From a virus (Duplodnaviria; Heunggongvirae; Uroviricota; Caudoviricetes), in IMG/VR virus record IMGVR_UViG_2700989509_000019, positions 1-7,336 of that record: a stretch of DNA of 7,336 nt, one strand, 5' to 3'. Under the pieces are notes generated by a model, which worked only from the letters and a program-made list of their open reading frames with translations, was not told the origin of the DNA and ran no database searches. Shown piece by piece: positions 2,977 to 3,246 of this stretch; the stretch's first letter is position 1; each line of letters begins with the position of its first letter. The position numbers and the translations under genes are program-made.

Positions 2977-3246
2977 ATGAACATACTAAAAAAACTTATG
3001 CAGCGTCTGTGTGGTTGCGGAAAGCATGATGACCGTGAACACGGGGAGTTACTTACAGCACAGCTGCGACTGGGACCGGCAGACATTCTGGAGTCAGATG
3101 AGAATGGCATTATCCCGGAGCAGGACAGGGTAATCACGCAGGTGGTGATACTGGATGCGGATAAAAAGCAGATACAGTGTGTGGTAAGACCGCTGCAAAT
3201 CCTGCGTGCTGACGGGACGTGGGAAAATATTGGCGGGATGAAGTAA
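2977..3246 (+). CDS. Small hypothetical protein (90 aa) immediately downstream of stf; function unknown, possibly tail-fibre associated
   Basis: ATG at 2977 lies 1 nt after the stf stop (TGA 2973-2975) with AGGAG at 2966-2970, suggesting co-transcription or translational coupling. The track's longer 2845 start would overlap the stf tip and is rejected. GC-rich like the tail genes, with a Cys-containing N-terminus (MNILKKLMQRLCGCGKHDD..). I see no similarity to lambda Tfa. Confidence 0.55.
   Translation: MNILKKLMQRLCGCGKHDDREHGELLTAQLRLGPADILESDENGIIPEQDRVITQVVILDADKKQIQCVVRPLQILRADGTWENIGGMK

Follow-up and report, generated by a model that had tools for sequence, protein, structure and literature searches.

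Collagen-like side tail fibres that end in a PfC domain (Pfam PF06820) have been described as EPclA and EPclB. The isolated PfC domain of EPclA (7.2 kDa) was found to be a trimer of 24 kDa by size-exclusion chromatography with multi-angle laser light scattering, and it renucleates the collagen helix (PMC3368898). Col-PfC is also trimeric and refolds rapidly, full-length EPclA trimerises when expressed alone in Escherichia coli, and three PfC domains make up a knob of ~7 nm at the distal fibre end (PMC3368898). We analysed a small open reading frame (ORF) that follows a fibre gene of this kind in a stretch of 7,336 nucleotides (positions 1 to 7,336 of IMG/VR record IMGVR_UViG_2700989509_000019; the window), which is the 7.3-kb right end of a lambdoid prophage of the Shiga toxin-producing and enteropathogenic E. 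coli (STEC/EPEC) type. The small ORF (2977 to 3246, plus strand) encodes a stand-alone PfC protein of 89 residues, and we give a probability of about one half to the reading that its product is a late, translationally coupled, probably trimeric knob protein which accompanies the fibre as a dispensable accessory.

Orthologues of the small ORF with 93-100% identity were found in 296 phage records, including VT2-Sakai/Sp5, EDL933-Stx/933W-type phages and phi24B (ADN68460). The Sp5 orthologue (orf59/ORF68/ECs1229) lies directly after the gene of a 645-residue fibre. An in-frame ORF68 deletion has been built, with dedicated primers in the supplement, and the gene was counted as non-essential; Sp5 without ORF68 still forms plaques and lysogens (Mondal 2016, PMC5155283). 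By contrast to ORF68, the fibre gene ORF67 cannot be dispensed with; its product was localised to the tail, and the ORF67 deletion mutant was positive in the complementation assay (PMC5155283). The same authors found no frameshift signal fusing ORF68 to ORF67 and suggested that ORF68 is a recombination reservoir or scar (PMC5155283). For phi24B, a 2026 cryo-EM preprint (10.64898/2026.04.10.717836) resolved no more of the lateral fibre gp61 than residues 1-141, and its C-terminal knob could not be modelled. Its authors argue that the gp61 knob does not bind BamA and list the function of the lateral fibre among their open questions.

The gene, its domain and its dispensability are already known from databases and literature. 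A sequence-only reading of the window had called the ORF uncharacterised, which was an overstatement, since Pfam, PHROGs and PGAP all have a name for the family, and the ORF was discussed and deleted in 2016 (PMC5155283). The small ORF is an annotated gene that is dispensable in the laboratory, and our analysis mainly corrects an identification that the sequence-only reading had missed. The new observations are modest, namely Salmonella orthologues behind a non-collagen fibre, a small protein that is more conserved than the fibre tip, an exact cassette boundary at the terminator, and previously unremarked peptides in phi24B virions.

A free-standing PfC domain behind the fibre gene

The stf gene of the window (1656 to 2975, plus strand) encodes a collagen-like side tail fibre of 439 residues. 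Pfam matched phage_tail_N at residues 3-135, Collagen at 253-311 and Phage_fiber_C at 365-428, and the protein has the architecture of EPclA as defined by Ghosh 2012: PfN, a coiled coil rich in Ala, Ser and Glu and poor in Leu, Val and Ile, collagen Gly-X-Y repeats, and PfC. The PfC domain of Stf (PF06820; 2748 to 2939, plus strand; Pfam match and alignment) is followed by an 11-residue C-terminal tail, which the small protein lacks. The stf stop codon TGA (2973-2975) is separated by one spacer base, C at 2976, from the ATG of the small ORF at 2977, and 89 codons run from there to a TAA at 3244-3246. A Shine-Dalgarno (SD) sequence, AGGAG (2966 to 2970, plus strand), lies inside the last stf codons, 6 nt before the ATG. 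This close coupling to stf had been described in the sequence-only reading and can be read directly from the bases.

PF06820 matched residues 28-89 of the small protein over the complete model (positions 1-64 of 64) with 123.2 bits, compared to a gathering score of 25 bits, and an E-value of 5.3e-36. PHROG 576 matched at full length (positions 1-89 of 89, E = 1.8e-60), and the PGAP/RefSeq name in the closest genome is 'phage tail fiber C-terminal domain-containing protein' (WP_001023407.1). The HMM search that had been proposed as a check thus identified the protein. The PfC domain (3058 to 3243, plus strand; Pfam and AlphaFold2) is predicted to form a beta-rich knob and contains the RLGP motif (L30-R31-L32-G33-P34), in which R31 and G33 are almost invariant in the alignment. 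It shares 39% identity over 62 residues with the PfC domain of Stf and, as judged from these sequences, the small ORF is a paralogue of stf's own C-terminal tip. The domain stands free, with its own SD sequence and ATG, and not at the C-terminus of a long fibre as in the fibre-borne PF06820 proteins; the full-length PHROG 576 match and the synteny directly after a PfC-ended fibre gene place it in the group of Sp5 ORF68.

Searches of Pfam, NCBIfam and PHROGs with the small protein matched tail fibre families only, and NCBIfam holds no model for it. No match to Caudo_TAP (PF02413) was found at E <= 0.1, so the statement that the ORF does not resemble Tfa holds. PDB sequence searches with the protein and with the family profile matched no chain. 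The AlphaFold2 model (monomer, from a 12-sequence alignment) had a mean predicted local distance difference test (pLDDT) score of 78.5. It predicted a helix at residues 3-12 with moderate confidence, a disordered stretch at residues ~13-28 (pLDDT below 50 at 14-19), and a beta domain of six strands, modelled with confidence (block means of pLDDT 84-93 for residues 31-80). The N-terminal extension (residues 1-27; 2977 to 3057, plus strand) therefore comprises a predicted amphipathic, basic helix and a low-confidence linker containing non-conserved cysteines. The acidic segment with Gly and Pro noted in the sequence-only reading corresponds to this linker and the RLGP start of PF06820; its identity as part of a fibre domain was missed.

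The N-terminus, MNILKKLMQRL, is charged and amphipathic without a hydrophobic core, and neither a signal peptide nor a membrane segment was found in the small protein. The CGCG motif that had been pointed out is present as C12-G-C14-G, but it varies: some E. coli copies have Y or R in place of C14, and in Salmonella orthologues the number of Cys at this place is 0, 1 or 2. The Cys residues are not a conserved feature of the protein.

Downstream, a hairpin (CGGAG-TCCGG-CTCCG, 3266-3280) with a TTTT run at 3281-3284 forms a terminator-like element (3266 to 3284, plus strand), which is likely the end of the late tail operon. Its stem of 5 bp is extendable with one bulge, and the terminator scan found the 3266..3284 element as a terminator-like site on the minus strand. 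A second hairpin of 8 bp lies at 3286-3304, and the small ORF indeed ends just before these hairpins, as had been stated. Its GC content is 50.0%, compared to 53-59.5% in the tail genes J, lom and stf and 30-43% in all that follows it, so that it fits the tail module and not the cargo, in agreement with the sequence-only reading. No promoter-like site was found between 2700 and 3750. The best explanation of these features is that the small ORF is a genuine late gene, the last of the tail operon. An antisense ORF of 320 residues (2352-3314, minus strand) covers the small ORF completely, together with the stf tip and the collagen repeats, and its counterpart in the phi24B record is the hypothetical protein vb_24B_37c. 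Rather than a gene, this antisense ORF is probably an artefact caused by the GC-rich Gly-X-Y repeats.

Linkage, selection and descent

We surveyed 5,426 complete E. coli genomes, in which the copies within one genome are not independent samples. The 231 nt encoding the stf PfC matched 6,160 sites and a 200-nt probe over the stf/small-ORF junction 6,315 sites, in either case spread over 697 genomes. The small ORF matched 6,815 sites in 698 genomes, the median genome having 10-11 of them. The near-equal genome counts indicate that the small ORF essentially always accompanies this stf tip, which answers the co-occurrence question raised in the sequence-only reading. A few hundred extra fragments of the small ORF were found elsewhere in E. 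coli genomes. The small gene is carried by ~13% of complete E. coli genomes, mainly of the Shiga-toxin and attaching-effacing lineages, and the carriers hold about ten copies each, one per lambdoid prophage.

A sample of 87 full-length copies, taken from 80 IMG/VR loci, annotated loci and the window, was used for finer comparison. The SD-TGA-C-ATG junction was conserved in all 87. The junction sequence GGAGAATGAcATGAA was near-invariant, and 84 of the 87 copies had one of two forms differing only at the third base of codon 2. In 80 of 87 loci, the homology to the window stopped exactly at the final T behind the hairpin (3284). It began either at the stf start or, where the fibre is of the Sp5 type, within the collagen region at ~2538. 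These alignment start and end points, together with the annotations of Sp5 and phi24B, define a mobile unit (2538 to 3284, plus strand) of 3' collagen, PfC, small ORF and terminator, after which the cargo is variable. The cassette is common to long-tailed lambda-like prophages and short-tailed Stx phages of the Sp5/933W/phi24B type, and the small gene is part of this cassette, which defines the lateral fibres of phages spreading stx and type III effector genes.

The terminator at 3284 is also the left border of the cargo region. The cargo beyond it varies by locus (L006-L085), with espK in the window (3285-5062) and an annotated EspO in some E. coli. The downstream cargo was NleG in Citrobacter rodentium and included NleG- and SopA-like genes in Salmonella.

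The small ORF was intact in 86 of the 87 copies, and many of the adjoining stf frames were broken; the reading frame is conserved, as the sequence-only reading had asked to be checked. The domain codons (28-89) showed 20 synonymous and 14 non-synonymous variants, with a ratio of non-synonymous to synonymous polymorphism (pN/pS) of 0.22, compared to 1.7 and 2.9 when the same bases were read in the other two frames. The pN/pS was 0.51 for codons 1-27 and 0.45 for the last 75 codons of the Stf tip, frameshifted copies being left out. The 150 nt downstream were unusable as a neutral reference because the loci fully diverge past 3284. Purifying selection thus acts on the small ORF in its correct frame, and its domain is at least as constrained as the Stf tip. 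The Pfam match (E = 5e-36), the PHROG match (E = 2e-60) and this frame-specific selection put the small ORF far beyond chance, and it is very probably an expressed and selected PF06820 gene.

The subtype is narrow, as an exhaustive HMMER pass over 1.84 billion representatives gave only 58 matches, nearly all of them fragments of the small ORF. A relative of 79 residues (P0129) with 63% identity pointed to Salmonella enterica, subsp. salamae included. An orthologue was present in all four loci examined in this species (L086, L088, L093 and L094), with 79 residues in three and 80 in L093. In each of the four, the final 14-23 nt of a PfC-ended fibre gene are shared with the small ORF, which comes with an AGGAGG of its own and has a hairpin and T-run after it (e.g., in L086). 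The complete fibre gene in L088 encodes a non-collagen fibre of PfN-Pf2-PfC architecture; L093 combines an intact small ORF with a fibre pseudogene. No match was obtained when the Salmonella module was compared by megablast with the E. coli genomes.

The domain identity between E. coli and Salmonella is 63-66% for the small proteins versus 38-40% for the fibre tips, and every comparison of a small-protein PfC with a fibre PfC gave 31-38% identity over the domain. This pattern indicates that the duplication is old and predates the split of the modules, and that the small protein is a separate, slower-evolving lineage. The N-terminal pattern M-x-I-[LF]-K-K-[LI]-x-x-x-L-x-G is common to both genera, unlike the Cys residues.

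Decayed copies were present in a prophage remnant of Citrobacter rodentium, and a scan of genome contigs matched only two short contigs. One of them, a 725-bp contig of Xanthomonas pisi DSM 18956 (L005, contig_138), encodes a small ORF that is 93% identical to that of E. coli and most likely reflects E. coli contamination of the assembly. Among more distant proteins, a metagenome protein of 565 residues (P0146) has about five tandem repeats by eye, four stretches of which were matched by HMMER. Each repeat ends in a PfC-like '…VVVLDAD…ILRVRRADGTW.EIPA' motif followed by a collagen run, from which it appears that PfC-like modules can be serial fibre building blocks besides a terminal knob. Six stretches were matched by HMMER in a second protein, P0147 (2,323 residues).

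Rare recombinants between the two PfC paralogues were observed in both directions. In P0063, the collagen region is joined directly to the small-ORF PfC, and P0125/L087 is the reciprocal chimera, with the small-ORF N-terminus and the stf PfC. The L087 locus (2697-3246; E. coli assembly GCA_005381265.1) contains a tandem array of stf (437 residues), a 92-residue chimera consisting of the small-ORF N-terminus with an stf-type PfC and tail, and a normal 89-residue small ORF. This array indicates unequal recombination between the two paralogues, with P0063 as the opposite product. Among the 1.84 billion representatives and 176 close homologues, the rare P0063 was the only full-length fibre with the small-ORF PfC subtype. 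Fragments of small-ORF-type PfC were also seen in the cargo ~0.8-3.3 kb downstream of the small ORF in ten loci (L021, L040, L045, L046, L049, L050, L056, L059, L062 and L063). They cover residues 58-80 at 78% identity, L056 having two, at 78% and 91%, and they look like scars of earlier recombination.

Virion peptides and possible roles

The supplement of the cryo-EM preprint (10.64898/2026.04.10.717836) includes a proteome spreadsheet of CsCl-grade phi24B virions. Its listed rows contain two peptides unique to the small protein, ADGTWENIGGMK, which is the exact C-terminus, and VITQVVILDADKK. Both are assigned there to 'gp59_start', to an extended ORF of 135 residues and to hypothetical gp61-gp59 fusion entries. 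In the rows listed, EA1829 is the one gel sample in which the fusion entry scores higher than gp61, and it comes well after the peak samples of the 649-residue fibre, the 409-residue capsid protein and the ~35-kDa gp84 fragment. A free protein of ~10 kDa would fit this pattern if the samples are ordered by falling mass. These rows contained neither an N-terminal peptide nor a junction peptide (TGEDM... or ...NDMNILK). Within the part of the proteome listed, it is established that the small-gene product, whose phi24B orthologue is 93% identical, is made and co-purifies with virions. Virion proteomics had been named as a check on the sequence-only reading, and its suggestion of a tip accessory, which we regard as the best of its readings, gains support from these peptides.

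The small ORF would be translated by coupling to stf, from its own SD sequence inside the stf end and an ATG 1 nt after the stop. By analogy with the isolated PfC of EPclA, the product is most likely a homotrimer. It would become an accessory of the side or lateral fibre that ends in PfC, present in few copies within the virion or on its surface, with the distal knob as the most plausible site, and would be needed neither for fibre assembly nor for infection of E. coli K-12. Because the gene is dispensable on K-12, any role is expected in adsorption or host range on natural hosts. We infer the trimerisation, the location at the fibre tip and any role in adsorption from these comparisons.

Several points weigh against this reading. 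ORF68 of Sp5 is absent from the lists of 9 essential, 2 reduced and 3 enhanced mutants, scored for plaque formation and lysogenisation on K-12 (PMC5155283), so that no phenotype supports a function. The 1-nt physical linkage alone would give co-occurrence with the stf tip whatever the function. The fusion entries of the phi24B proteome carry the label 'Spike or just gp59?', so its authors were unsure whether the peptides come from a fusion; only two peptides appear among the rows listed, and co-purification is no proof of a structural role. The small protein is never mentioned in the main text of the preprint, in which no density is assigned to it and the fibre tip is unresolved (10.64898/2026.04.10.717836). 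Furthermore, the trimerisation of the small protein is drawn by analogy from the EPclA PfC, and its docking is a proposal.

A stronger form of the accessory reading, in which the small protein is the true distal end of the fibre, a separately encoded trimeric knob docked onto the fibre's own PfC knob via its N-terminal helix and the fibre's short C-terminal tail, seems unlikely to us. If it were true, the small protein, as the conserved partner, could carry a conserved binding function, for example to a common surface glycan or, in phi24B with its folded-back fibres, to the surface of the capsid. Stx phages would then have two-component adhesins as lateral fibres, which would explain why the fibre tip does not bind BamA. 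The Salmonella orthologues, the reversed conservation, the cassette boundary and the virion peptides together make a two-component fibre tip a testable hypothesis. A component of the fibre tip would bear on host range, and hence on the rise of new STEC strains, and would also be a compact trimerisation module for collagen engineering.

The suggestion of Mondal 2016 is that the ORF is a spare C-terminal cassette without a function of its own, which can replace the fibre tip through deletion or recombination or was left over from such events. The natural recombinants P0063 and P0125/L087, the partial PfC fragments downstream in several loci and the lack of a deletion phenotype speak for such a reservoir or scar. 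However, we consider it unlikely as the main explanation, because the ORF is under in-frame purifying selection and intact in all but one copy, has its own conserved SD sequence and ATG, and keeps its N-terminal helix into Salmonella. In addition, the small protein is conserved at 66% as opposed to 38% for the fibre tips, the opposite of a source of variation. Full-length fibres of its PfC subtype are limited to the rare P0063, and peptides of the free ORF appear in the listed rows of the phi24B virion proteome. An assembly factor, a free PfC that templates or nucleates the trimerisation and collagen register of Stf in the manner of Tfa and might stay attached, would also suit the translational coupling to stf and the site directly downstream of the fibre gene, the usual one for a chaperone. 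The PfC is itself a trimerisation and nucleation module (PMC3368898), and the window retains only a remnant of a lambda-type tfa. This is nevertheless an improbable role, as recombinant EPclA and Col-PfC trimerise without the small protein (PMC3368898), the protein is not similar to Caudo_TAP or any other chaperone family, and ORF67 of Sp5 is essential whereas ORF68 is dispensable (PMC5155283). The chaperone proposed in the sequence-only reading is disfavoured on the same grounds.

A +1 frameshift at the stf stop (GAA UGA C) would fuse Stf to the small ORF and give a minority fibre with two tandem PfC knobs. In E. coli and Salmonella alike, a +1 shift out of the fibre gene does lead into the frame of the small ORF, and no stop codon interrupts this frame over the 44 codons before the ATG. 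The phi24B authors, as the listed rows show, put fusions in their search database. Such a fusion is nonetheless very unlikely. Mondal 2016 found no signal for it (PMC5155283) and inspection here found no plausible site; the listed proteome rows contain no junction peptide, and the EA1829 pattern would fit a free ~10-kDa protein under the sample order assumed above. The re-pairing from GAA to AAU is non-cognate, and the spacing from SD to ATG is canonical for initiation in both lineages. At the prfB site, an SD-like element lies 3 nt upstream of the P-site codon; at the stf stop, AGGAG abuts the would-be P-site codon. A prfB-like shift at GAA-UGA-C was accordingly rejected on re-pairing and SD spacing, by inference from what is known of prfB. 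There is hardly any likelihood that the gene is a moron, lipoprotein or superinfection-exclusion factor expressed from the prophage, as the sequence-only reading had also offered. It stands at the border with effector cargo and its N-terminal LCGC is loosely lipobox-like, but no promoter-like site, signal peptide or membrane segment was found, and the terminator at the end of the conserved tail cassette and operon comes only after the gene. Moreover, its GC content is that of tail genes and not of the AT-rich cargo, and its database matches are to tail fibre families only. The lipoprotein idea in particular was rejected on the charged N-terminus without a hydrophobic core and on the Cys residues, which are polymorphic or absent in orthologues.

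The surrounding genes and the known systems

Upstream of stf, the window contains the C-terminus of the tip attachment protein J (57-905) and lom (938-1597). Downstream of the cassette, the AT-rich cargo comprises a hypothetical ORF of 91 residues on the minus strand, the type III effector gene espK (3701-5062, minus strand) and, beside espK, a gene of an AraC-family regulator resembling YdeO and GadX (6124-6873, plus strand; 32% GC). The best NCBIfam matches of the regulator were YdeO and GadX, both far below the cut-offs; it may belong to the prophage-encoded acid-resistance regulators, or those of the locus of enterocyte effacement, in enterohaemorrhagic E. coli. In the best-matching genomes, the closest complete one being E. 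coli O121 RM8352 (L001, 4402-6376), the annotation gives lom and stf as pseudogenes with frameshifts. These genomes have intact copies of the small ORF, espK and the 91-residue ORF, and in the window lom and stf are intact too.

A C-terminal remnant of a lambda-type tfa (45 codons; 5442 to 5579, plus strand) matched Caudo_TAP positions 89-130/131 with E = 1e-18 and corresponds to the 'tail fiber assembly protein, incomplete' of PGAP in the matching genome. It is stranded downstream of espK, and the older stf-tfa pair was seemingly replaced by the collagen stf, the small ORF and cargo. From the presence of the remnant, it seems that the original stf-tfa pair was displaced and that no intact Tfa accompanies the fibre of the window.

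Compared to the PfC domains of EPclA and EPclB (PF06820; PMC3368898), the small protein has the same Pfam domain and RLGP motif and only 34-38% identity. It differs from these fibre-borne domains in being free-standing and off the collagen helix, with an added N-terminal helix and linker of 27 residues. The fibre copies carry a C-terminal tail of 11-14 residues that is missing from the small protein, which forms a separate lineage conserved into Salmonella. The Tfa/Caudo_TAP proteins (lambda Tfa, Mu U and P2 G) are likewise encoded directly after a fibre gene, and some Tfa proteins remain bound to the fibre tip. They have no sequence similarity to the small protein, which is homologous to the fibre's own tip and not to a chaperone fold. 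In addition, the small gene is dispensable where the fibre is essential (in Sp5), unlike Tfa/Caudo_TAP. The Mu tail fibre S (PDB 8ju3) and other phage fibre knobs gave weak scores with no sequence-level match and are a lead, not a membership.

The closest relatives are ORF68/ECs1229 of Sp5, the 'tail fiber protein' of 933W-type phages and ADN68460 of phi24B ('gp59' in the preprint), all of 89 residues and 93% identical to the small protein. The Sp5 and phi24B orthologues lie at the same site, 1 nt after a PfC-ended fibre gene, with the same downstream terminator, and belong to PHROG 576. The contexts differ in that the gene of the window follows the 439-residue EPclA fibre of a long-tailed lambda-like prophage, whereas the Sp5-type gene follows the 645-residue EPclB lateral fibre of a short-tailed Stx phage. 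The part shared between the two is only the 3' cassette of collagen, PfC and small ORF.

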